Assembly (NCBI GenBank): GCA_041652815.1
Contig: JBAZGN010000006.1
Span: 1-45,569, forward strand
Reading direction: 5' to 3'
Length of the DNA stretch: 45,569 nucleotides
From: Candidatus Omnitrophota bacterium
Lineage (GTDB): Bacteria > Omnitrophota > Gorgyraeia > Duberdicusellales > 4484-171
The position numbers and the translations under genes are program-made. The notes beneath the pieces were generated by a model. It was not told the DNA's origin and searched no databases. It saw only the letters and a program-made list of their open reading frames with translations. Each line of letters begins with the position of its first letter. Within the stretch, counting starts at the first letter, position 1. Positions 5,818 to 42,918 of the stretch are shown here, one piece after another.

Positions 5818-5908
5818 CTAGGAGTAATGCTCAATCAGAAGGTGTAAACTGGAGTTGGAGTAAATTGTCTCAAGCAAAGCGTCGAGATCTGCTGGAACGT
5901 AGTTCGAT

Positions 5909-6503: not shown

Positions 6504-6920
6504 ATGGAAGAATATTTTCAAACACTCAAAAGGAATAAATTAAAGATAACCCCAAGGCGTAAAGCGGTTATAGGTTTATTTTTGAAGTCTGGCATGCGAA
6601 TGGGGCCTTACGATATTTATAATAAGTTAAAACAAAAACTTCCTAAAATAGGGTTACCGACTGTATATCGGATATTGGATGAACTTAAGAAAGCAGGGAT
6701 TTTAGTGCAATCATTATCTTCTGACCGCCAATTGTGCTATGCGCTATGTGATTCTCCCGGCACGCATCACCATCATTTTGTTTGCCGTAAATGCAAAAAG
6801 GTTGATGAAGTTAATTTTTGTAACTTTAAAGGTATATCGGAATTTATTAAGAAGAATCTTAAAGCTAAAGTCGAGACGCATCATCTGCAAATAGAGGGTG
6901 TATGTTCAAAGTGCAAATGA
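6504..6920 (+). CDS. zur: Fur-family regulator, Zur-like
   Basis: KITPRRKAVI, IGLPTVYRIL, HHHHFVCRKC, GVCSKC; heads an operon with znuACB; ATG 6504 lies downstream of the box. Confidence 0.85.
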   Translation: MEEYFQTLKRNKLKITPRRKAVIGLFLKSGMRMGPYDIYNKLKQKLPKIGLPTVYRILDELKKAGILVQSLSSDRQLCYALCDSPGTHHHHFVCRKCKKVDEVNFCNFKGISEFIKKNLKAKVETHHLQIEGVCSKCK

Positions 6921-11934: not shown

Positions 11935-12333
11935 GTGCAAATAAGACGTTTTGGTGTATCGTTAGAAGATGATCTTTTGAAAAAATTGGATAAACTTGTA
12001 GGGGTACATAAATTTCCTAATCGTTCACAAGCTATAAGATTTTTGATAAGGAAAAATCTTGTTGAAGAAGCTTGTGAGAAAAATAAAGAAGTTTCCGGGG
12101 CAATTATTCTTATCTATGACCATCACAGGAGAGAATTAGTGAATAAGTCATTAGATATACAGCATGACTTTTCGCATAGTATTTTATCTACCCAGCATGT
12201 TCATCTAGACCATAATAATTGTTTGGAAATAATTGCCTTAAAGGGGAAAGCAAAGAATTTAAAGGAGCTTTCAGATAAACTGATAGCCCTAAAAGGCGTT
12301 AAGCACGGAAAACTGGTTATAAGCACGACATAG
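11935..12333 (+). CDS. nikR: Nickel-responsive regulator NikR
   Basis: RRFGVSL RHH strand, [18 protein letters not shown]; GTG start with RBS AGGAGG. Confidence 0.95.
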
Positions 12334-12361
12334 CTTTATGTAGTTTTTGAAAATATAACAA

Positions 12362-12523
12362 ATGGAAAATAAAACGCTTAAATTAGAAGAAAAAGAAAAA
12401 CAACGCATAGCGCATGAAGTTTTAAGGGCGATTGGCAATATAGAATATGGCGAAGTAGTGCTTACTATACATGATTCAAAAGTTGTACAAATTGAGAAAA
12501 GGGAGAAGAGGCGGTTTAAATAA
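12362..12523 (+). CDS. DUF2292 (YezD/OscA-like) small protein, 53 aa (not in ORF track)
   Basis: Manual translation: ...RAIGNIEYGEVVLTIHDSKVVQIEKREKRRFK. Confidence 0.8.
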   Translation: MENKTLKLEEKEKQRIAHEVLRAIGNIEYGEVVLTIHDSKVVQIEKREKRRFK

Positions 12524-12611
12524 GAATTACTACTGCACCTGCAGTGTCAGATATTAAACAGTAATTTTTTCGACTGGACAACCAGAGAAAAAAGTAAAGG
12601 AGGTTGTCCAG

Positions 12612-13958
12612 ATGCGGATAATTACATTTTTGATTGGTATCTGTTTTTTTGCAAATGTTTGTCTTGCTGATGAGTCATCTATACAGGATGAAATAAATCA
12701 GCTCAAATCCCGTATAGAAGCGTTAGAAAAAAAAGCTTCCCAGCAGGACGGTTACATTAAGTCTCAGGAGGGCACAATAAAACTTCAGGCAGACAAAATC
12801 TCTCAATACGAAACAAAACTCTCTCAGCTTGATGAAAAGCTTCATCGTGAAACTGGGCTTCCTGAACAAATCGCAAAGGGTCTTGATATTAGCGCTGGCG
12901 CAACAATGGTCGTCCAAGGAACAAATAATGTTAATAACGCATCAGACGATGCCAACCGGAACATTTCCCGTACTGATGGCTCATATTCTACGGACATTAC
13001 GATAGGCAAGGAATTTGAGCAAATAACCGGTAGAGCCTTTCTGCATCTTGAAAATGGTCAAGGCGCAGGGCTTGAAGACAATCTTACCTTGTATAGTAAT
13101 GTTAACCGTGATGCTGATGACGATGTTAATGTCAGAGTTACTGAAGCCTGGTATGAACAAGGGCTTTTCAACGATAAGGCAGCCATAACCTTTGGAAAGC
13201 TTGATCCTACGGTTTATTTCGATGATAACGCCGTTGCCAATGATGAAACTACGCAGTTTTTAGGCAGAATTTTCCGTAATTCACCGACAATTGAATTTTC
13301 TGATAATACAATGGGCATACGTCTTGCTTATATGCCGAAAGAGTGGGTTGAATTTAACTACGGCGTATTTGATGGGAACAATGACTGGGAAAAAATTACC
13401 GATAACCTTGTAAGTATGGGGCAGGTAACTTTTAAAACAAACTTTTTCAATCTCCCCGGTAACTACCGTATCTTAGGCTGGAGGAATAATGTTTACCATA
13501 CCAAATGGCTTGACGATACGCAAACCAAAGAAAATGCCTATGGTTTTGGTTTAAGTTTTGACCAGAAAGCCAACGATGTCGTGACTCTCTTTACCCGTTA
13601 TGGCTGGCAGAATCCAGAGGTTTATAATCCGGAAATTACCGCAACCGGCGATTTAAACTATTCCCTTGAACAATCCTGGAGCGCAGGCTTTCAGATTGAG
13701 GGAAAACCTTGGGGTAGGGAAAATGATGTAGTGGCTTTTGCTGTTGGCCAAATCTTTCCTTCTGATGATTACAAAGAAGCTACCGGACGTTTGGGGAAAA
13801 CAGAGGGCCATCTTGAGGCTTATTATAAAATATATTGCAACAAGCATCTTTCCGTCAGCCCAGATTTCCAATATATCTGGAATCCTTTTGGAAAAGACAT
13901 AGCCGATGATACAGATGGAGTATTTGTGGGAGGGATGAGGACACAGGTAGATTTCTAA
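12612..13958 (+). CDS. OprB/carbohydrate-porin-like outer membrane beta-barrel with N-terminal coiled coil
   Basis: Signal peptide, coiled coil, VTEAWYEQ, FGKLDP..F..N..ANDETTQF, EAYY, SPDFQYIWNP, terminal F. Confidence 0.8.
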   Translation: MRIITFLIGICFFANVCLADESSIQDEINQLKSRIEALEKKASQQDGYIKSQEGTIKLQADKISQYETKLSQLDEKLHRETGLPEQIAKGLDISAGATMVVQGTNNVNNASDDANRNISRTDGSYSTDITIGKEFEQITGRAFLHLENGQGAGLEDNLTLYSNVNRDADDDVNVRVTEAWYEQGLFNDKAAITFGKLDPTVYFDDNAVANDETTQFLGRIFRNSPTIEFSDNTMGIRLAYMPKEWVEFNYGVFDGNNDWEKITDNLVSMGQVTFKTNFFNLPGNYRILGWRNNVYHTKWLDDTQTKENAYGFGLSFDQKANDVVTLFTRYGWQNPEVYNPEITATGDLNYSLEQSWSAGFQIEGKPWGRENDVVAFAVGQIFPSDDYKEATGRLGKTEGHLEAYYKIYCNKHLSVSPDFQYIWNPFGKDIADDTDGVFVGGMRTQVDF

Positions 13959-13971
13959 GTAGGAGGTTAAT

Positions 13972-14250
13972 ATGTGGTTAGCAACAACTTCTATCGCGGC
14001 GACAGGCGCAACTTTAGCTAAATTTGTTTTACCCAAAAAATATAAATTAGATTTTTTAGCTTTAATGCTTTGGGGAGCAGCAGCAATGATTCTCATCGAC
14101 CATATATTCGGATATGAGGGTGGGGCGTTTTTGGAGAAAACAACAGATGGGATGATTAGAAATAGCGCGTTATTGGGGATTACAATGTTGGTGCCCGTGT
14201 TTATAATATGGGGAATTTCACTTTTAATTTCAAATTTAAAAAGGAGGTAA
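13972..14250 (+). CDS. Small 3-TM membrane protein (paralog of the next gene)
   Basis: LMLWGAAAMILIDHI ... FIIWGI; RBS AGGAGG. Confidence 0.75.
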   Translation: MWLATTSIAATGATLAKFVLPKKYKLDFLALMLWGAAAMILIDHIFGYEGGAFLEKTTDGMIRNSALLGITMLVPVFIIWGISLLISNLKRR

Positions 14251-14253
14251 AAA

Positions 14254-14568
14254 ATGGCTTGTTTTCTTGTCCCAACAGCTGCGGCAATAGTAACAACTGC
14301 CGCAGGAAAAAAAGCTAGCGAGAAATTACACTTCAATTGGTTGAATTCAATGTTGTGGGGCGGAGTGGCAATGTTGGCAATCGAACATATCTCTCACGGC
14401 GAATTTGTTCCTTATCCACCATTTCTAACTGCTGGGCTTCCTGAGGTTTTACCGGAAATGGCAAGGGTTGGTATTCCGATGACTCTGTCTATCTTTCTGA
14501 TATGGGGGATAATGGTAACGGTAGCCGCAGTAACGGGTAAAAGAGTAAAGTATATAGAAACGTTATAG
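14254..14568 (+). CDS. Small 3-TM membrane protein
   Basis: MACFLVP, SMLWGGVAMLAIEHISHGE, FLIWGI; RBS AGGAGG. Confidence 0.75.
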   Translation: MACFLVPTAAAIVTTAAGKKASEKLHFNWLNSMLWGGVAMLAIEHISHGEFVPYPPFLTAGLPEVLPEMARVGIPMTLSIFLIWGIMVTVAAVTGKRVKYIETL

Positions 14569-14589
14569 AAAATTACGTTAGATATAACC

Positions 14590-14620
14590 AAAGCCCACCT
14601 TTTAGGTGGGCTTTGTGTTT
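14590..14620 (+). terminator. Intrinsic terminator after the nikR operon
   Basis: AAAGCCCACCT-TTT-AGGTGGGCTTT followed by a T-rich run. Confidence 0.75.
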
Positions 14621-14728
14621 ATAAGACAATCTCAAGCTGGTTAAATTCGTTTCGTATGTTTGGAAATGGATAGATGTTTTTTATAATTTATTTTTTGAAA
14701 AAAGAATTAATAGTATATCTGTCTTCTT

Positions 14729-15181
14729 ATGTGGGAAGTTTACAGGAATGTCATCAGATGCTATCCAAAGATTTCTCTATCCGAAGAAAGGCTTTTGATT
14801 TATAAGGCTCAAAAAGGATCAAAGAAGAGCAAGGATAAAATTGTTTTTCATTATATTGGTTTCTTAATCTTTAGAATTCACAAAATAGTATTTCCTGAAC
14901 TGCTTCAGCGATTTGGCGAAGATTTACTTGAAGAAGCCATATTGGTTGTTTATAAAAAAATTGAAAGCTATAATCTTGATTATTGTGATAAGCAAGGTAA
15001 CCCTAAGCCTGTAAAGCTTGTTTCTTATATTTGGAAACGAATCGATGGGTTTATAATTGATTCTTTGAAGAAAGAATTGGTTGAATCAAACTATTACAAC
15101 CAGTACAGTGAATATAGTATCAAAAATACAGATTTATCGCTGATGTCCACGTCAAGAGAGGTAGACAATGCTATCTCTTAA
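14729..15181 (+). CDS. Sigma70 region 1.2/2-like protein lacking region 4
   Basis: LSEERLLIYKAQKG, EDLLEEAIL...KIESYN, KLVSYIWKRI align by eye to sigma regions 1.2/2; only 150 aa. Confidence 0.6.
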   Translation: MWEVYRNVIRCYPKISLSEERLLIYKAQKGSKKSKDKIVFHYIGFLIFRIHKIVFPELLQRFGEDLLEEAILVVYKKIESYNLDYCDKQGNPKPVKLVSYIWKRIDGFIIDSLKKELVESNYYNQYSEYSIKNTDLSLMSTSREVDNAIS

Positions 15182-15216
15182 TAGCTCAATGGATTGCAGA
15201 TTTTTCACCCAAAAAC

Positions 15217-15353
15217 AACCGGACAAAACGGACAAATTAGCGAGGGATTAACCTCTCTAATCCGCGAATTTCTTGATAATCACCCTATTTAGCCCTATAA
15301 TACATACTTGTAGATAGAGAGAGGTTTCCCCTCGTGGAATACGACTGGGACCC
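15217..15353 (+). repeat. Promoter-bearing dispersed repeat, copy A
   Basis: AACCGGACAAAACGGACA; arm CGAGGGATTAACCTCTCT 15241-58; TTGATA-N17-TATAAT 15273-15301; arm AGAGAGGTTTCCCCTCG 15318-34; GGGACCC. Confidence 0.9.
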
Positions 15354-15536
15354 TGTTTTAGTTTCAGGAGTGCTCGGGTTAAAAAAGGAGAGGGGATAGA
15401 TCTATTTTTATCAAAAAATTAGAACTATCCCCTTTGTTGTTATATAATAATTAAGTATTGTGTCCCCCGAATTCCGTCCCGAATTCCCTTTTGGATCGCT
15501 AACAACGGCAATGTTCGGCAAAAGAAGGAGAGCAAA

Positions 15537-16580
15537 ATGAGCATATTAGGAAAATCATTCGGATTAAAGCCGCGCGCGCCTGGAAGCATATTCAACAGAT
15601 TTATATTAGGTTTTGTCTTGGTGCTGATGTTAGCCGGTCAAACATTGTACGCTCAGCAAAGCGATGCTGACGGTAAGAAGCTTTCCGAGATCCGGGCTAA
15701 GGCAGAGAACGGTGATGTCGAAGCGCAGGTTGAATTTGGTCGTATATTATCGCAAGGTAGGCTTGGCGTGACTAAGGATGAAGTGGAAGCGGTGAAGTGG
15801 TTTCGTAAAGCCGCCGACCAGAACTTTTTTTCAGCTCAAGACTGTCTTGGTTTTTGTTACCTTCACGGTATAGGTGTGGAAAAGGATGAAGAGGAAGGAT
15901 TGAGGTGGTATTGTAAGGCTGCTGAGCAGAATTTCGCCGAAGCTCAATACACTTTGGGTGTTTTCTACCGCGATGGGCAATTTGTAAAGAAAAATTCACA
16001 GAAAGCGGTAGAATTGTTTCGAAAAGCTGCCGACCAGAACTATCTATCCGCTCAAACCAATTTGGGCCTCTGTTATCTCCATGGTGATGGCGTAGGGAAA
16101 GATCAGCAGGAAGGACTAAAGTGGCTTCGTAAGGCCGCTGAGCAGAATGATGTTTATGCTCAGCATAATTTGGCCCAGTGTTATAGCAATGGTGAAGGTG
16201 TAGAAAAGGATCAGCAGGAAGCGGTGAAGTGGTATCGCAAAGCCGCCGAGCAGAATTTCTACGCTTCTCAATTCAATTTAGGCTTCTGTTACTATAATGG
16301 CATAGGCGTGGGGAAAGATGATGCGGAAGCGGTTAAGTGGTATCGCAAAGCTGCTGAGCAGGGATTTGTTGCGGCTCAGGGTGCTTTGGGAGAATGTTAC
16401 TTCAGGGGTATAGGTGTGGTGCAAGATATGGCGGAGGCCTACAGGTGGTTTTTGTTGTCCGCGTCGCAAGGTGATAAGGAAGCTAATATACGTGCGCGGC
16501 AAACTGAAAAGAAATTAAAAAAGGATCAAATTGCAGAAGTAAAGAAGCAAGTGGCTGAATGGATCGAACGGAACAAGTAA
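15537..16580 (+). CDS. Exported Sel1-repeat protein
   Basis: Multiple EAVKWYRKAAEQ / AQxNLG repeats; signal peptide. Confidence 0.92.
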   Translation: MSILGKSFGLKPRAPGSIFNRFILGFVLVLMLAGQTLYAQQSDADGKKLSEIRAKAENGDVEAQVEFGRILSQGRLGVTKDEVEAVKWFRKAADQNFFSAQDCLGFCYLHGIGVEKDEEEGLRWYCKAAEQNFAEAQYTLGVFYRDGQFVKKNSQKAVELFRKAADQNYLSAQTNLGLCYLHGDGVGKDQQEGLKWLRKAAEQNDVYAQHNLAQCYSNGEGVEKDQQEAVKWYRKAAEQNFYASQFNLGFCYYNGIGVGKDDAEAVKWYRKAAEQGFVAAQGALGECYFRGIGVVQDMAEAYRWFLLSASQGDKEANIRARQTEKKLKKDQIAEVKKQVAEWIERNK

Positions 16581-16603
16581 GCCACTAACTAAAAGGAGTT
16601 GTT

Positions 16604-17326
16604 ATGCAACCATCTTTGCTAAAGACCGGATCGTATCGTTTAATAAAATTCAGAAAAATATTTGCCGCAGGTTCTTTTTGCGTTTTATTAATTTTAGGGA
16701 TCACCGGATGCGCGACCATGGCGACTAATCCTGAGGCAGGGTTTATTCCGAACGAACAGGAAGGGATCGTTTTTGGCCAGATGCAAATTCTCATTGAGGG
16801 GAATCTTTATCGTTACGACGGAAAGAAGCTTTTCGGGGTTGTGTGCCCACAGATGATTGTTACGCACGTTTCGCCTTATTCCGATGAGCAATCGGTTAAT
16901 ACCAACATCCTTCTTCCTGGAAAACTGGCTTTTAAAACCCAGATAGCCGATAATGGATACTTCACGGCAAAATTACCGGTAGGTAGGTATTATGTAAGTG
17001 AATTCATGTTTTATTTGCCGAATTACGTGTCCTTCCCTCCGGCATACTTACAGTTCCCCAAAGGATATAAGACCTATATGTACAGTGCAGGATTAGAACC
17101 ATCCGATCCCAAAATTGTCATATTCGATGTTTTTCCGAATAAGGCCACCTACATCGGGACATTTATACATAGAGTAGACACTGGTGATGACAAGAAGACG
17201 TCTCTAAATGTACGAATCAAAAATGAATATGACGCGTGTAAATCCGTGTTTCTGGCCGCGCATCCAGTGAGCGAGGAATCTATTGTTTCGGAGCCGGCCA
17301 CGTCTATTCCTTATAAGAAAATGTAG
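16604..17326 (+). CDS. Putative lipoprotein
   Basis: Lipobox-like GITG-C after a hydrophobic stretch; RBS AAGGAG. Confidence 0.6.
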   Translation: MQPSLLKTGSYRLIKFRKIFAAGSFCVLLILGITGCATMATNPEAGFIPNEQEGIVFGQMQILIEGNLYRYDGKKLFGVVCPQMIVTHVSPYSDEQSVNTNILLPGKLAFKTQIADNGYFTAKLPVGRYYVSEFMFYLPNYVSFPPAYLQFPKGYKTYMYSAGLEPSDPKIVIFDVFPNKATYIGTFIHRVDTGDDKKTSLNVRIKNEYDACKSVFLAAHPVSEESIVSEPATSIPYKKM

Positions 17327-17440
17327 GCAGAGGGCCGGGCTTTCGTATTCGCCCTGTGCCGTGGGGACGTTCCCAAAAATGACATCCTGGGATTATAAGG
17401 TGTCCACAAATAGGATGGTCCCAATAGGACAACTACTGCA

Positions 17441-18100
17441 ATGACTTCCAAATCAAAGAAATCATTTATTTTCATGCCAACTAAGGCCGAGTGGCGTCAG
17501 CTGAAATTGATTTTCGGCATCTCAGTACTGGTAGCGCTCGCCATTCCTATAGTCATCACCATGGTTTGTCGACTCGGCCAACGGAAAGACGAACGGGAAC
17601 TTGCACCATTTGTTCCTCATGAAACCGAATACGGGACTATAATAAAAGCGGCTCTTGGATCATCACGCGTCCAGACTTCCACATCCAATCTCCCGCTAAC
17701 GATACGGGGAAAGTTGCTTCCGATGTGGCGTGGCTCGAACGGCCAAAATGCGATCGCTCTCGAAGAGCTACGTCAGCTTCCAGGCACTTTACGTCCACGC
17801 TCCCATGAAGAGGTTGGAACGCTAGTTATCTGGGAAAGCGAAAAAGTCCAAATTGGCTGTTATGACGATAAAAACGGCAATGGCGCTAACGCTTACAAGC
17901 ACTATATTTACTTAACATTTGTAGACGTGCAGACGGCATCAGTGATCGCCCGATATACTTTTACTGGCAGTGATCCATCGCAGGTGATCAGAAGGGATTT
18001 TCTAGGCGGATTTGTTGACGGAGAGGGCTCATACCCACTCGACGAAGCTAGAGTTTTCATCCGGTCAGTTACTTTGGCAGGCAAGCCCGCCGGCAAATAG
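17441..18100 (+). CDS. Hypothetical protein with N-terminal TM anchor
   Basis: Long ORF with one TM; no family recognised. Confidence 0.6.
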   Translation: MTSKSKKSFIFMPTKAEWRQLKLIFGISVLVALAIPIVITMVCRLGQRKDERELAPFVPHETEYGTIIKAALGSSRVQTSTSNLPLTIRGKLLPMWRGSNGQNAIALEELRQLPGTLRPRSHEEVGTLVIWESEKVQIGCYDDKNGNGANAYKHYIYLTFVDVQTASVIARYTFTGSDPSQVIRRDFLGGFVDGEGSYPLDEARVFIRSVTLAGKPAGK

Positions 18101-18139
18101 ACGCACCGGATCTAGGCAGATAGAATAAGCCGGTGTTGA

Positions 18140-18360
18140 TGCTACAAAATGTCCACCTTTATAGGGTGGACATTTTGTAGCAATTTTCCGTATAAAGAGT
18201 TACGTAATTTCTATCCAAAAACGAGCGGACAAATTGGACAATTTAGCGAGGAAAATAACCTTTCTAAAATGCGAATTTCTTGATAATCACACTATTTAGT
18301 CCTATAATGCATACATATAGATACCGAGAGGTTTCTTCTTGACAAATAATAGGGGGACCC
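18140..18360 (+). repeat. Promoter-bearing dispersed repeat, copy B, with perfect 18 bp hairpin
   Basis: TGCTACAAAATGTCCACC-N7-GGTGGACATTTTGTAGCA 18140-82; GGACA x2; TTGATA-N17-TATAAT 18280-18308; GAGAGGTTTC..GGGACCC. Confidence 0.88.
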
Positions 18361-18439
18361 AAAATTTGCACCTTGCGGCAGTACAAAAACTCATAAATTA
18401 CGAATTCGTATATTATATGTTAGGCGAAGAAGAGGAAGA

Positions 18440-19366
18440 ATGATGAATTGGTTCAAGTCCATATTCAACAAGACGACCACTGCTGACACTGGAACAACAC
18501 CAACGAGAATCGTGTCATCCACTGATCGTTTTAGTCGGGATCCAATAGTTAAGTGCCTCGTGGATGCGTATCGCACGAACATCTACTATGGAATACCAGA
18601 GAAGGAAAAGGAGAAGGCCCAGAATATACTCAAAGGAGCAGGCCCTGAAGCGGTTCCAGTAATTATACAGGCGCTTGATCAGCTACATTTCGATGCCAGA
18701 GAAGACAAATATTCACAAGAGGAACACCCCTTTCTCAAGATTTCCGTCACTTCCTACGTTCGCTATCTTATTGGGATTCTTCTGGAAATCGGTGACGAAC
18801 GTGCGGTGGATATTCTGCTTAGACACTTTGCGTTTGACGCGGAAAGCGCAGGTTCGCTTGCGGACAAGATTTCGCAGTTCTGTACACGAATCGGCACCAA
18901 GAAAGCAACTACTGCATTGATTGAGTATCTGGATGATGATCTCACGCGTTTGCGAGCAGTCTATGGCCTTGGGCTGTTGGCAGACGACCGAGCAACCAAT
19001 ATGCTTATGTCTGCTTTGGAGAAGTATGGCGATGACGTCAGAAGTCAGTTGAAGTATTCAAAAACATCTTTTGCGGAAGGCCTAATTGCTCAATGGGAGA
19101 GGAAACGCAAGGAATCAGGCCTACGCGTCGAAAGCATGAGAGATGCGGAGATGATCAAGATACTCAAGAAACTATGCAAAGCCTATATGGATAATGACAA
19201 GGAAACCATCACTTACAATGAGCCAATCGCCAGAGACATCGGAGAGGAACTAGACCGACGTGGCGGGCTAGTGGAGATGCGGCGGGTTTTCGCTTTACTG
19301 AATGGATGCCCTGGTTCTCGCACACTTGAGATGCACTGGCATCGTATCGGCCAGTGGATGGGATAG
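18440..19366 (+). CDS. HEAT/PBS-lyase-like repeat protein
   Basis: GPEAVPVIIQAL, IGDERAVDIL, LRAVYGLGLLADDRA. Confidence 0.7.
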   Translation: MMNWFKSIFNKTTTADTGTTPTRIVSSTDRFSRDPIVKCLVDAYRTNIYYGIPEKEKEKAQNILKGAGPEAVPVIIQALDQLHFDAREDKYSQEEHPFLKISVTSYVRYLIGILLEIGDERAVDILLRHFAFDAESAGSLADKISQFCTRIGTKKATTALIEYLDDDLTRLRAVYGLGLLADDRATNMLMSALEKYGDDVRSQLKYSKTSFAEGLIAQWERKRKESGLRVESMRDAEMIKILKKLCKAYMDNDKETITYNEPIARDIGEELDRRGGLVEMRRVFALLNGCPGSRTLEMHWHRIGQWMG

Positions 19367-19438
19367 GAGTGTGACTGGAAACTGCCTGAATTACTGCCCG
19401 GTGCAAAAATTATATCTGTTTTTTGTAGCTTCCCGCAC

Positions 19439-19637
19439 AATGTCCACCTTTAAGAGGTGGACATTATATATCTGACTGAAGCCAAAAGAATTACAGTATT
19501 TTGTCCCCGCAATTACCGGACATTCCGGACAAATTACGCGAGGGAATACCTCTCTAAAACCCAAATATATTGCCATAACGCCGTATTGCCTATATAATCC
19601 TTCTATATAAATAGCGAGAGGTTTCGAGGAGGATCCC
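19439..19637 (+). repeat. Promoter-bearing dispersed repeat, copy C
   Basis: AATGTCCACCT-N5-AGGTGGACATT 19439-65; TTGCCA-N17-TATAAT 19570-98; 19514-19625 matches copy D at 111/112 nt. Confidence 0.9.
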
Positions 19638-19707
19638 AGTTTTAGAGAAAAGTCACAAAAAACGAATTTGTATATTATATGTTGGCCATAATCAAGGAGG
19701 AAAATGG

Positions 19708-21093
19708 ATGAACATTGCACAAGTATTAGGGCTGAGCCCCAAGAACAAACACGTGGATGCCTTTATAGAGAAGGCTGTGAAACTTCCGCTCGAACGGGAT
19801 GGGAAACGAGCTGCGAAGCTCGTGAAGGATATGTCGGCTTTGTACGTATGGATCGAGGAAAAAGGTGATGCTGGAGTAAGAGCCTATTTAGGTCAGTTCG
19901 TATCAATGTCATTCAGTAATCTTCTCATTGATGCCAAGAATGCAGGCGCCACCGGACATCTGGCTCACGCGCTCCTCGTCTCGTTCTTAGAACTGACCCG
20001 CACACGTGGAACATTCAGACACATTGATTGGCTATATGAACGCGAGAAGCCTTCGCAAGTCATTGGTTCTAAGAGTGTGGACCACCAAGTATCGTCGAAG
20101 GACGTTTCGGGCCTACTTGCTCTTCGTGAAGCAGTTATGAAGGGCGATTTTGAAACGATTATGACAGCGATAAGAAACAATCCTGATCTCGTTTTCACCA
20201 CAGACCCCGATACCGGAGAAACTCTCTTGCATACGGCCGCATATAGTGGGTACAAGAATCTCATCACATTTCTTTTGGAGCATCACGCCGACATAAATGC
20301 TAAAGACAACCTAGGAAATACGCCGTTGCATAGAGCGGCACTTAGATGGCGCGAAGACATCGTCGATTTGCTGCTCTCCAACAATGCAGACGTCGATGCC
20401 ACAAATACCTTCGGCTGCACTCCACTGCATGTGGCGACCGAGTGGAGCAGCAAGGATGTAGTTAACACGCTCTTAGCCAGGCTAGCCCATATCAATGTAA
20501 TAAACAATGAAGGTTATACACCGTTACACATAGCGGCACTCACAAACAGGAAAGACATTGCAGACTTACTTTTGGCTAACAAAGCGGACATCAACGCTAA
20601 AGATCACTTGGGTAGGACTCCTTTACAACCACGGGTGTGTGAAAGTATGAGCACACTGTTACGTAAACACGGAGGAATAGCCAAAGCGACAGACACTACG
20701 TTTCATGATGCGGCACGCAATGGTAGTGTGGAAACATTGAAGTCAAGAATGAATGATAACCCTAACGTGGTCTTCAGTAAAGACGACTATGGCAAGACAG
20801 CTTTACATTATGCGGCGGAGTTTGGACAGAAGAAGATTGCAGAGTTATTGTTGGCCAACAAGGCCGAAGTCGATCCCACGACCAACTTGGGGGTTACGCC
20901 TCTACACATGGCGGCCTCAAATGGTCAGAAGGATATAGTGAGATTATTGCTGTTAATGGGCGCAAATGTGAATGAGAAGAGTTGCCCCGGCCAAACAGCG
21001 TTGGGCTATGCGTTGGCGCGAGGACACAAGGATGTCGTGACATTGCTACGCAAACATGGCGCTAGGGAGTATTTGCAGACTAGCGTTGGCTAA
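19708..21093 (+). CDS. Ankyrin-repeat protein with unique N-terminal domain
   Basis: GETLLHTAA, GNTPLHRAA, GCTPLHVA, GYTPLHIAA, GKTALHYAA, GVTPLHMAA. Confidence 0.95.
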   Translation: MNIAQVLGLSPKNKHVDAFIEKAVKLPLERDGKRAAKLVKDMSALYVWIEEKGDAGVRAYLGQFVSMSFSNLLIDAKNAGATGHLAHALLVSFLELTRTRGTFRHIDWLYEREKPSQVIGSKSVDHQVSSKDVSGLLALREAVMKGDFETIMTAIRNNPDLVFTTDPDTGETLLHTAAYSGYKNLITFLLEHHADINAKDNLGNTPLHRAALRWREDIVDLLLSNNADVDATNTFGCTPLHVATEWSSKDVVNTLLARLAHINVINNEGYTPLHIAALTNRKDIADLLLANKADINAKDHLGRTPLQPRVCESMSTLLRKHGGIAKATDTTFHDAARNGSVETLKSRMNDNPNVVFSKDDYGKTALHYAAEFGQKKIAELLLANKAEVDPTTNLGVTPLHMAASNGQKDIVRLLLLMGANVNEKSCPGQTALGYALARGHKDVVTLLRKHGAREYLQTSVG

Positions 21094-21192
21094 CCACTGG
21101 AGGCATCGTACGTCGCTTAGGACCTTTGGGGACATGTCAAAAAGGGACGCACAAATTAATTAGAGTGTCCCAAAGTGGCGCGTTCCTGGTAG

Positions 21193-21465
21193 CTCCTGAT
21201 ATTATGCATCTTGATAACTCTGTTTTTAGCTAAAGTAACCGCGGATTATATTTTTGCCGAGCCACCGAATAAAATCTCATCTTGTAATATAGGCGAAGTC
21301 AAACGGTATCTGCATTATGATACCGCCTATAACGAAAATAATTCTTCAAACAACAGCGCCTCAAGTAACGAGTTGAGCAATGCTGCACAAGAGCTGCAGA
21401 AACAGGCAGAACAAAGAGTGAAAGAAGCATTAAACAATAAACATTGTCTGTGTTTATCTAAATAA
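21193..21465 (+). pseudogene. 5'-truncated remnant of a secreted protein
   Basis: Hydrophobic LLILCILITLFLA segment follows an in-frame TAG at 21190 with no RBS or ATG; sits next to the GTGTCCC junction motif. Confidence 0.35.
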
Positions 21466-21618
21466 ATACCGCCTCTTCTGGCTTCGCCGGGCTATCAGCA
21501 CCGGTTTCTTATTCCAAAAACATCGTGATATTTATAGCATAGCCAAATTTGTATGGTATTTGTCCACGAAGATGTTTCCGCCGTCTTTACGCCCGCAACA
21601 AAAATTCAAACCAAAAAA

Positions 21619-21755
21619 TACCGGACATTCCGGACAAATTACGCGAGGGAATATCTCTCTAAAACCCAAATATATTGCCATAACGCCGTATTGCCTATAT
21701 AATCCTTCTATATAAATAGCGAGAGGTTTCCCCTTGTGGAATATGAGTGGGACCC
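21619..21755 (+). repeat. Promoter-bearing dispersed repeat, copy D
   Basis: 112 nt (21619-21730) match copy C with one mismatch; right hairpin CTTGT-GGAAT-ATGAG, GGGACCC. Confidence 0.9.
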
Positions 21756-22562: not shown

Positions 22563-22576
22563 AATATAATTTTGAT

Positions 22577-22709
22577 TCGACAAAACAGACATCTTAGCGA
22601 GGGGACAACCTCTCTAAGCTGCTACTTCCTTGATAATCACCACTTTTAGCTCTATAATACATATCTGTAGATAGAGAGAGGTTCACTTTGTGGCAAATAC
22701 GCGGGACCC
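22577..22709 (+). repeat. Promoter-bearing dispersed repeat, copy E
   Basis: TTAGCGAGGGGACAACCTCTCTAA; TTGATA-N17-TATAAT 22630-58; AGAGAGAGGTT..GGGACCC. Confidence 0.85.
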
Positions 22710-22805
22710 TTACATAATCTTATGAGCGAAGCGAATTAGAGTGTGTTATCCAACCGAGTTCTTAAAATTTTCGAAGAAAATTTTAAGATATACAGCGAGG
22801 TTGGA

Positions 22806-22888
22806 CAGTAATTCTCTTCTCTAGCCACAGAGGAGAGAGGATCAAAGCTCTGATTCCTAACGGTAATCAGGGCTTCTTTATTTGTCGT
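22806..22888 (+). terminator. 83 nt double-hairpin/terminator repeat block, copy 1
   Basis: CTCTTCTCT-N6-AGAGGAGAG, then AGC(T/C)CTGATT-N9-AATCAGGGCT plus CTTTATTT; 82/83 identical to 29410-29492. Confidence 0.75.
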
Positions 22889-22898
22889 CCTGCTGTTT

Positions 22899-28251: not shown

Positions 28252-28286
28252 CAGTACAATAATTTGCATAATTTCCAGCCCAAAAT

Positions 28287-28424
28287 AACCGGACAAAGCG
28301 GACAACTTTAGCGAGGGAATACCTCTCTAAAACCCAAATATCTTGCCACAACACCACATTGCCTATATAATTCTTCTATATAAATAAAGAGAGGTTTCCC
28401 CTCGCGGAATACGAGTGGGGCCCC
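28287..28424 (+). repeat. Promoter-bearing dispersed repeat, copy H
   Basis: Arms 28311-28 and 28388-405 are 16/18 complementary; TTGCCA-N17-TATAAT 28343-71. Confidence 0.9.
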
Positions 28425-34116: not shown

Positions 34117-34322
34117 TGTCTACCTAAGAGAGACTGTCATTTTATATCTATCTACGCCTCAAATAATTACTAAATTTTCAGCCAAAAACAACCGAACAAA
34201 CGGACATTTTCACGAGAGAATAATCTCTCTGAATTACGGATTTCTTGATAATCGCCGTATTTAGCACTATAATGCATACCTATAAAAAGCGAGAGGTTTC
34301 CCCTTGTGGATTTTTCTGCTCT
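34117..34322 (+). repeat. Repeat copy J with decayed sigma-like gene tail
   Basis: GATGTCTACCTAAGAGAG aligns to the sigma-like 3' end; TTGATA-N17-TATAAT 34245-73; GAGAGGTTTCCCCTTGTGGA. Confidence 0.85.
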
Positions 34323-39823: not shown

Positions 39824-39863
39824 CTATTTAGCTTCAAAAGAGTTAGACGATTTCTGGGTAAAA

Positions 39864-39979
39864 ATAACCGGACAAATAGAACAAATTTAGCGAGAGGATA
39901 TTTCTCAAATTTACCAATAGCTGCCTACGGAGAGGATGCCCCCTCTCGTGGATTATGTCTGCCCCTGGTGAGAGGAGTC
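39864..39979 (+). repeat. Hybrid repeat copy K (type I left part + type II right part, no type I promoter)
   Basis: AATAACCGGACAAATAGAACAAATTTAGCGAGAGG joined to AGCTG..GGAGAGGATGCCCCCTCTCGTGGATTATGTCTG..GGAGTC. Confidence 0.75.
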
Positions 39980-42533: not shown

Positions 42534-42918
42534 AAGAAAGCTCTTTATTTTCACTTAAGCAGGAAATAAATATTCTTGCGAAATATTTAAGTTTAAAATA
42601 ATCAAATATTATATTCGAGTCCTTGTGGGGAGTATTTGATTTTTTAACCCTTTGTGATAATATATTACAAACAGTTTTTGTTGATATAAAATAAATCTCA
42701 AGGCAAATTTTATAATGTTAAAATTACATAACAACCCAATCTACATTACTCTAATACGCAGTCGAGCGAGTGACCGGTTGTAGTGGGTGATTAATATTGT
42801 TATAATTAATATAAAATTTACTCACCAGAGTAAGGTTGAGAGTCAAATCTTGCGAGGTGGATCGAACAAAACCTGAATAGCATAAAGCTATCGTTACAAG
42901 GTGGCAGAGATTTAGTAT

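Follow-up and report, generated by a model that had tools for sequence, protein, structure and literature searches.

Orphan attI sites behind a lineage-specific promoter in an Omnitrophota genome: probable loading by integrase-type recombination of platforms that now seem frozen

Can a gene be recognized as the first cassette of an integron when neither an integrase gene nor an attC site accompanies it? The question is raised by a Candidatus Omnitrophota bacterium whose 2.0-Mb genome (G000; 7 contigs, 92.5% complete) includes a 45.6-kb contig (C6, JBAZGN010000006.1; 45,569 nucleotides [nt], analyzed whole and called the window here) on which nearly all genes lie on the + strand and three successive units, headed by a Sel1-repeat, a HEAT-repeat, and an ankyrin-repeat gene, each begin shortly after a GTT 7-mer. 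An earlier note on this DNA read all three as carrying integron-cassette signatures, and proposed that a 19-mer common to the HEAT and ankyrin leaders is an attI-like site loaded by an integron integrase (IntI) encoded elsewhere. We argue here that the two leaders contain genuine attI sites, orphaned behind a promoter peculiar to the genus; that the HEAT and ankyrin genes most likely arrived at these sites by integrase-type recombination; and that the arrangement is now probably frozen. To this statement as a whole we would assign a probability of roughly 0.58. Judged from a MinD/ferredoxin protein, the closest relatives of the genome are metagenome-assembled genomes of Candidatus Omnitrophota.

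The short motifs on which the proposal was built are all present in the window: GTTCGGC at 15513-15519 (with an ATG at 15537), GTTAGGC at 18419-18425 (ATG at 18440), and GTTGGCC at 19681-19687 (ATG at 19708); the common 19-mer, ACGAATT(C/T)GTATATTATAT, at 18400-18418 and 19662-19680; GCTAAC-N9-GTTCGGC at 15498-15519; and GGCTAAC at 21088-21094, overlapping the TAA stop codon of the ankyrin gene. By themselves, neither the GTT 7-mers nor the "collapsed attC" that the earlier note saw at 15498 are more frequent than chance predicts. GTTAGGC alone among the three 7-mers fits the canonical GTTRRRY, which averages about one occurrence per kb of the + strand and lies 9-40 nt upstream of 1 of 54 + strand open reading frames (ORFs), where ~1.4 would be expected; and YTAAC-N5-15-GTTNG occurs 3 times on the + strand and twice on the - strand, compared with 5.1 times in shuffled sequence. 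The two copies of the 19-mer are not independent of each other, because the intergenic regions that contain them (B, 18101-18439, and C, 19367-19707) align throughout, from terminator hairpin through promoter to ribosome-binding site; the 19-mer occurs nowhere else in the 2.0-Mb genome, and its frequency in 40 relatives does not exceed that of its reversed control. Pure chance acting within a duplicated regulatory region was in fact our first reading, held with considerable confidence at a time when, with 7-mers at chance level, no IntI, and no excess of the 19-mer over its control in the 40 relatives, an integron seemed to us close to negligible as an explanation, and it was abandoned because the attI sites of relatives and a scan of metagenomes showed that the 19-mer is attI. 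We also rejected a riboregulatory structure formed by the 19-mer (the leaders at B and C fold no more stably than shuffles, z = 0.2 and 1.0) and a second promoter inside it (on our reading, no usable -35 element on either strand); no Rfam family matches in the window. The caution for others is that GTT and AAC cores are uninformative alone, and that the answer came only from comparison with the real integrons of relatives.

That comparison identifies the two sites as follows, crossover points being marked by an arrow. Site B, before the HEAT gene, reads GGCAGTACAAAAACTCATAAATTAC, then GAATTCGTATATTATATG↓TT, then AGGC (18377-18425, + strand), with the crossover between 18419 and 18420 and a palindrome TACGAATTCGTA; site C, before the ankyrin gene, reads AGAGAAAAGTCACAAAAAAC, then GAATTTGTATATTATATG↓TT, then GGCC (19644-19687, + strand), with the crossover between 19681 and 19682. 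The element common to both, GAATT(C/T)GTATATTATATG↓TT, is letter for letter the core of attI in one class of chromosomal integrons from Omnitrophota. Site B matches the class core, GAATTCGTATATTATATG↓TT with its TACGAAT box, at 20/20 positions, and this 20-mer is identical to the intI-adjacent attI at loci L147, L148, L154, and L177 and in genomes G086, G106, and G158; site C matches at 19/20, and its variant recurs at locus L155. Site B retains ~45 nt of attI, very like those of L161 and L173 (its upstream 25 nt are similar to L161, L173, and L144), while the usual Pc promoter is gone.

The relatives lead to the same sites. All 8 of the 8 IntI-bearing relatives carry between intI and the attC array an attI of the form (T/C)CGTATATTAATT followed by GTTAG, often after TACGG...CCGTA; site B, TACGAATTCGTATATTATAT followed by GTTAGG, is 16/18 identical to their consensus, with the TACG..CGTA palindrome and GTT both aligned. 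Trained solely on the attI sites of these eight relatives, a weight matrix placed site B first among ~4 million genome positions, at 20.2 bits, and site C tenth; true sites left out of training scored 15-27 bits and shuffled genomes reached 17-22 bits, so that the score of site B is indecisive alone and counts because the site had been named beforehand. The attI part of B agrees with that of C at 26/27 positions, whereas the promoter parts are only ~65% identical (our estimate). The GTT ends 18 nt (B) and 24 nt (C) before the start codon, and in real first cassettes the start codon follows the GTT by roughly 11-37 nt, as we read their flanks. Canonical attI loci also have a second, distal TACGAAT-type box ~75 nt upstream of the core (CAAAnTRCGAAWT near -95); in the window its position is taken by the promoter module, and AAAATGCGAATTTC beside the -35 element of B resembles it only loosely. 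The integrases of the relatives (L129-L134) are 427-451 amino acids (aa) long, extending ~110 aa further at the N-terminus than the 315-position IntI model, and this extension might read the second box. We regard it as highly probable, from these sequence comparisons, that B and C are genuine attI sites of the Omnitrophota integron class with long-form IntI. A third stretch of the + strand, at 21272-21298, is 19/27 identical to the 27-mer of the attI part and has TAGGCGAAG in common with the right flank of site B; it is possibly a decayed junction or a chance likeness (p ~0.05 for the region, by our estimate).

The same attI is found in other settings. Thirty-four metagenome stretches contain the exact 20-mer GAATTYGTATATTATATGTT, 3 of them TA-repeat junk and 31 non-repetitive, and most of the 31 show a -35/-10 promoter, a short G-rich/A-rich element, (A/G)C-GAATTCGTATATTATATGTT, and then immediate divergence. 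A divergent intI is present at 5 of the 31 loci, its product 45-57% identical to the IntI of relatives and its start ~150 nt away in the four complete cases; 14 of the 31 have attC sites 200-2300 nt downstream on the same strand, and none has them on the opposite strand. The 19-mer with its GTT is therefore found near both intI and attC, being identical to an attI core that adjoins long-form intI genes and precedes attC arrays in other Omnitrophota, and in this respect the "attI-like" of the earlier note was too modest.

Two comparisons place the crossover precisely. Loci L147 and L154 do not differ over 1500 nt up to and including the GTT and then agree at only 39/120 positions, the random level, which indicates that G↓TT is the working crossover in this integron class; the two are one and the same integron, carrying another first cassette in each sample. 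Locus L155, which belongs to a close relative of the window's genus, has a homolog of a 240-aa gene of the window (70% nucleotide identity) directly upstream of a C-type promoter module and attI (85% identity over 146 nt, the last 31 nt identical). Compared with site C, L155 agrees at 49/60 positions before the GTT, including all of the last 31, and at 34/120 after it, and an unrelated gene for a zinc-ribbon membrane protein follows directly after the GTT; a switch exactly at this point is the pattern that integrase-mediated exchange would leave.

Nor is an attI standing apart from intI peculiar to the window. Of 400 Omnitrophota genomes, only five others contain the 20-mer at no more than one mismatch, against one match for the reversed control; four of the five belong to family f22 and one to f55, and 4/5 encode exactly one IntI. 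In G086, intI and its adjoining attI lie on contig C1, and C3 holds another attI (C3:41960, L191), which has a promoter of its own and is accompanied by three attCs; G106 has intI and attI plus two or three further attI sites, including C3:376 (L187) and C1:131393 (L194); and G382 has an attI (C40:28791, L185) and an attC without IntI. An adjacent intI is absent from nine metagenome loci for which at least 1.5 kb of upstream sequence is available; L161 and L166 both follow murJ-uvrC-type housekeeping genes and carry attCs, with L145, L166, and L161 representing a conserved chromosomal position. Orphan attI platforms thus recur in other Omnitrophota; each of these extra sites is equipped with a promoter, and attCs accompany most of them. 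At L151 (10731-11548 of Ga0222657_1000769), the 20-mer follows not a divergent intI, but a same-strand gene for a 205-aa tyrosine-recombinase-like protein together with ParA-like genes, and this may be a plasmid-borne variant of the platform.

In the window, both attI sites lie in the leader of a promoter module of ~170 nt that is found only in the bacterium's own genus and consists of an A-tract, CGGACAA direct repeats, a GAGGG..CCTCTC inverted repeat, TTGATA or TTGCCA-17-TATAAT, and a GAGAGGTTTC leader hairpin. The contig has at least 8 copies (15197-15353, 18189-18360, 19480-19650, 21599-21755, 22569-22695, 28267-28423, 34184-34310, and 39850-39922), a strong enrichment relative to the rest of the genome. 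Copy B (18189-18360, + strand), with CGGACAA repeats and the GAGAGGTTTC leader, has TTGATA-17-TATAAT at 18280-18308, an 11/12 match to the sigma-70 consensus, and copy C (19480-19650, + strand) has TTGCCA-17-TATAAT at 19570-19598; the -10 element ends 111 nt (B) and 83 nt (C) before the GTT. Because attI sits in the leader of this promoter, the gene just past G↓TT is transcribed from the module. The window thus contains orphan attI platforms behind a lineage-specific promoter, and this much can be read directly from it.

Were the genes at these sites once cassettes? The HEAT-repeat gene (18440-19366, + strand; 308 aa, Pfam HEAT_PBS and HEAT_2) occupies the first-cassette position of site B, and the ankyrin-repeat gene (19708-21093, + strand; 461 aa, Pfam Ank families) that of site C. 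The HEAT gene is moreover bracketed on the same strand by the two crossovers, 18419/18420 and 19681/19682, which delimit a unit of 1,262 nt (18420-19681). A cassette origin is supported by position at G↓TT, by foreign base composition (a GC content of 0.44-0.47 across the Sel1-HEAT-ankyrin range compared with ~0.37 in the flanks), and by strain-specific presence. The HEAT gene has no homolog in 40 relatives; its nearest homolog (39% identity, L178) lies between two attC-like palindromes, its R″ box being GTCTAAC where GGCTAAC would be expected from its GTTAGCC start, a 6/7 match. The N-terminal 175 aa of the ankyrin protein have no homolog among 5.8 billion proteins. In real arrays (L131), every cassette has an R″ exactly complementary to its own initial GTT 7-mer, and the GGCTAAC over the ankyrin stop codon (21088-21094, + strand) is the only R″-like box that pairs with its gene's own 7-mer, GTTGGCC, as the earlier note had seen: the pairing holds at 7/7 positions with one G-T. 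Its significance is borderline (p ~0.01, our rough estimate), and the box may be the sole remnant of an attC.

The explanation that we favor would run as follows. Each attI copy would have lost its neighboring intI and Pc promoter and become fused within the 5′ leader behind the strong, genus-specific, sigma-70-type module; the HEAT and ankyrin genes would most likely have arrived by integrase-type recombination at G↓TT, catalyzed by an IntI not encoded beside the site; the HEAT unit at 18420-19681 would lie between two directly oriented attI sites, like the attI-gene-attI cassettes of class 1 integrons; and the arrangement would now be frozen, probably working today simply as promoter, leader, and gene. 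We think it probably frozen because no cognate IntI can be detected and no attC is present. In class 1 integrons, units of the form attI1-gene-attI1 both excise and insert in the presence of IntI1, and excision of attI1-aadB-attI1 exceeds 97% (PMC12901181); because the arrangement at our locus is, by comparison, 100% identical in three other assemblies (four in all), no cognate integrase appears to be active in the population. At somewhat better than even odds, we hold that integrase-type recombination put both genes in place and that neither site is active any longer; our confidence in the attI sites themselves is much higher. Two routes fit the layout, either an attI-attI unit, as for the HEAT gene, or homologous recombination between promoter copies, such as the copies C and D that bracket the ankyrin gene.

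Several observations weigh against this reading, the first being the missing attC. Textbook arrays exist among the relatives (9 attCs in G015, L131; 4-5 in G022, L129), with attCs of the form TCTAACAA-AATCCAGCGGAC...GGCCGCTGATTTTTGTGTTAGAT; a covariance model (R1) built from 10 of the relatives' attCs recovered held-out attCs at 42-47 bits, and found 35 attCs at 20-56 bits in the metagenome loci. With filters off and E-values up to 10, R1 is silent between 15 and 22 kb of the window, leaving the Sel1, HEAT, and ankyrin genes without attC, and normal capture by attI x attC recombination should leave an attC behind. The HEAT gene lacks an R″ box as well, so that nothing of an attC follows it (the earlier note had likewise found no inverse core there), and neither R1 nor inspection of the region revealed a palindrome or attC fold after the ankyrin GGCTAAC. 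Five other HEAT homologs have ordinary contexts, and L109, L111, and L179-L183 show no integron features. Each of the three units (Sel1, HEAT, and ankyrin) has a private promoter at 11/12 of the consensus and the first two end in hairpins, which contradicts the classic anatomy of promoterless cassettes; the private hairpins, together with the 98%-identical promoter copies on either side of the ankyrin gene, fit loading by homologous recombination also. The attI variant of the window, TATAT, is of the family f22 type, whereas IntI-bearing members of its own family use TAATT. Finally, the identity of the arrangement across assemblies gives no hint of turnover in this population.

The missing integrase is the other point on the same side. 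The genome encodes three tyrosine recombinases, of which the best scores 89 bits for TIGR02249, where the cut-off is 265; a tblastn search of the 92.5%-complete genome with the IntI proteins of six relatives found neither IntI nor a fragment of it, but only Xer-like genes at 27-32% identity; and no IntI is present in the other six genomes of the genus (seven with our own). Eight of 61 relatives do have IntI, at 390-419 bits, all in the same family and in other genera. The earlier proposal that the sites were loaded by an IntI encoded elsewhere is plausible: G086 and G106 provide precedents for one intI and additional attI sites with cassettes on other contigs, but no such integrase was found in the genome or the genus. 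An intact attI beside a wholly missing attC also argues against simple parallel decay.

Other attC-like structures are scattered through the genome and genus. A strict scan for R″/R′ pairs returned two loci where ~4 would be expected, one of them within the Sel1 coding region; the other, at 22748-22806, is a hairpin of 59 nt whose ends read ATCCAAC...GTTGGAC and whose inner stem is perfect over 13 bp; it is of attC size but ignored by R1, and lies in an ORF-less module of promoter, hairpin, and terminator. The hairpins at 18140 and 14589 were considered as miniature attCs and rejected, R1 scoring no higher than 15 bits (E = 0.5) at 14580 and giving no match at 18140. A weak attC-like match on the + strand at 42724-42805 (24.8 bits, E ~0.002-0.06), with ACATAACAA...TTGTTATAA ends and a poor fold (z = -1.4), is located in a long non-coding stretch with remnants of promoter modules, upstream of a 101-aa ORF, and is possibly a decayed attC; the window offers no other candidate. 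Elsewhere in the same genome, contig C1 has a lone attC of the family type (618224-618278, - strand; 46.4 bits) between minus-strand ORFs of 108 and ~140 aa; half-site remnants at ~5835-5855 and ~6706-6730 of this locus (L139, 5830-6740) make it look like a small decaying cassette pair in a genome without integrase. Within the genus, G003 has an array of 4-5 attCs (C172; L140, 3975 nt) and G001 a single attC (C71:772-849), with no IntI detectable in either.

The alternative that survives best is that the attI sites, although real, were never used here and are passengers, the HEAT and ankyrin segments having been brought in or duplicated, leaders included, by homologous recombination between module copies. 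The 45-kb contig has at least 8 such copies; copies C (19511-19625) and D (21616-21730), which flank the ankyrin gene, are 98% identical over 115 nt, a sign that one was recently duplicated or converted from the other, and the ankyrin gene would be lost if the two underwent homologous recombination; attC and IntI are lacking; and the content past a sigma-like gene varies within the genus, with module copies there in all members. We nonetheless consider this explanation unlikely, since it leaves three things unaccounted for: the similarity to L155 that stops exactly at the GTT, the far better conservation of attI than of the promoter between B and C, and the R″-like box at the ankyrin stop codon.

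More improbable again, in our view, is a live platform on which both attI sites are served in trans by a cognate IntI encoded in the unassembled ~7% of the genome or on a visiting mobile element. The genome is, to be sure, 92.5% complete in 7 contigs, integron regions are known here to break assemblies (the contigs of 4/6 relatives end just past attI), conservation of the attI cores is perfect, some genomes do combine a single intI with several attI platforms, and the genus has the lone attC on C1, the array in G003, and the single attC in G001; but two attI sites in direct repeat, at a spacing of 1.26 kb, would be expected to be unstable if IntI were at work, as is attI1-aadB-attI1, more than 97% of which is excised by IntI1 (PMC12901181), and four identical assemblies and seven genomes of the genus without IntI speak against it.

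We find it very improbable that, as the earlier note had it in full, the Sel1 operon and the HEAT and ankyrin genes form a single degenerate array of three cassettes, in which 15498 marks a collapsed attC. All three GTT 7-mers do lie 21-27 nt before a start codon, and CTAACAA at 15499 matches the start of the lineage's attCs; but the GTTCGGC of the Sel1 gene does not fit GTTRRRY and has no attI before it or attC after it, R1 is silent at GCTAAC-N9-GTTCGGC (15498-15519, + strand), which we judge a chance pattern and neither attC nor attI, and every unit has its own promoter, with terminators between units. Least credible of all is a palindromic 20-mer that is the operator of a regulator or an Xer/dif-like site with a chance likeness to attI: TACGAATTCGTA is a perfect palindrome in B, shuffled genomes attain the weight-matrix score of site B, and we take GTATATTAT..GTTA to resemble the dif site of E. 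coli on its XerD side, but the exact 20-mer adjoins intI and precedes attC arrays at many independent loci, cassette content switches at its GTT, and four of the only five other genomes of 400 that have it (one match for the reversed control) encode IntI.

The Sel1 unit (15537-18100) itself comprises the Sel1-repeat gene (15537-16580, + strand), behind promoter copy A (15273-15301) and without an integron site, and two genes of unknown function (16604-17326 and 17441-18100, + strand); it shares the higher-GC island and the promoter family of the HEAT and ankyrin genes, and includes the 240-aa gene whose homolog precedes the promoter and attI of L155. A terminator-like hairpin with a perfect 18-bp stem (18140-18182, + strand), not recognized by R1, closes the Sel1 operon and opens intergenic region B, and a weaker copy follows the HEAT gene (19439-19465, + strand). 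A second type of leader, TTTAGCTGTA..AGAGG..CCCCTTGTGGATTATGTCTGCC, is present at 22896, 24007, 29669, 29752, 35685, 39910, and 42466. Upstream, a block of genes for NikR, a porin, a small membrane pair, and a sigma-like protein (11935-15181) is syntenic with positions 1-3985 of contig C48 in G005, a genome of the same genus (L112). Past the sigma-like gene, the content of L112 is wholly different (PAS, Rnf/Nqr subunit-family, malic enzyme, M50 peptidase, and P-type ATPase), and this variable region also holds copies of the promoter module.

How does the locus compare with described systems? The sedentary chromosomal integrons of Omnitrophota and neighboring phyla (long-form IntI of ~430-475 aa, Pc, attI, and homogeneous attC arrays) have the identical 20-nt core, a similar upstream box, and the same geometry of promoter, attI in the leader, and first gene 10-35 nt after G↓TT; our locus differs from them in lacking intI and attC, in having two tandem attI sites, and in the replacement of Pc by a genus-specific module with a leader hairpin. 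Of the parts of a complete integron, it has attI and a promoter reading into genes, and lacks IntI, attC, and a promoterless single transcription unit. The HEAT unit has the same layout as the attI1-gene-attI1 or delta-attI cassettes of class 1 integrons, an ORF between two direct attI sites, but includes a terminator and a full promoter, belongs to a different attI class, and has neither integrase nor array. An In0 (intI and attI without cassettes) likewise has an attI with no attC downstream, but has the integrase that our locus lacks. A CALIN is defined as at least two attC sites without an integron integrase; half of all CALINs are in genomes without IntI, and mobilization in trans has been proposed for them (PMC4889954). 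Our locus resembles a CALIN as an integrase-less chromosomal remnant, and differs from it in having attI instead of attC. IntegronFinder recognizes complete integrons, In0s, and CALINs, and searches for attI of classes 1-3 only (PMC4889954); the locus fits none of these classes, and IntegronFinder would not report it, because its attI falls outside the three for which it searches. We found no description of orphan or solo attI sites, nor of an integron attI in Omnitrophota, in a literature that we covered incompletely. To our knowledge, attI sequences have been described for no integrons other than classes 1-3 and a few chromosomal ones.

We wish to emphasize what follows from the attI sites themselves. 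Standard tools are blind to integron platforms that lack both intI and attC, yet a whole environmental class of integrons has a sharply conserved, searchable attI; attI occurs as extra, promoter-equipped copies away from intI; and it can persist, intact and duplicated, in a genome without detectable integrase and at a locus without attC, where it lies in the leaders of accessory repeat-protein genes that are driven by the module. If such sites are used in trans, whether now or earlier, the integron would be a distributed system, and uncultured phyla would hold more capture platforms than their counts of integrons and CALINs suggest. A broader reading, which we offer tentatively and think well short of probable, is that Omnitrophota integrons are distributed systems in which one long-form IntI serves scattered, promoter-equipped attI pads. 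In the present genus, the pad would have been grafted onto a lineage-specific promoter of high strength, and the 1,262-nt HEAT unit would be a mobilizable attI-attI cassette that needs no attC and carries its own terminator together with the promoter for the next gene. The pads would then provide a route by which bacteria that are probably host-dependent try out and express eukaryote-like HEAT and ankyrin proteins.

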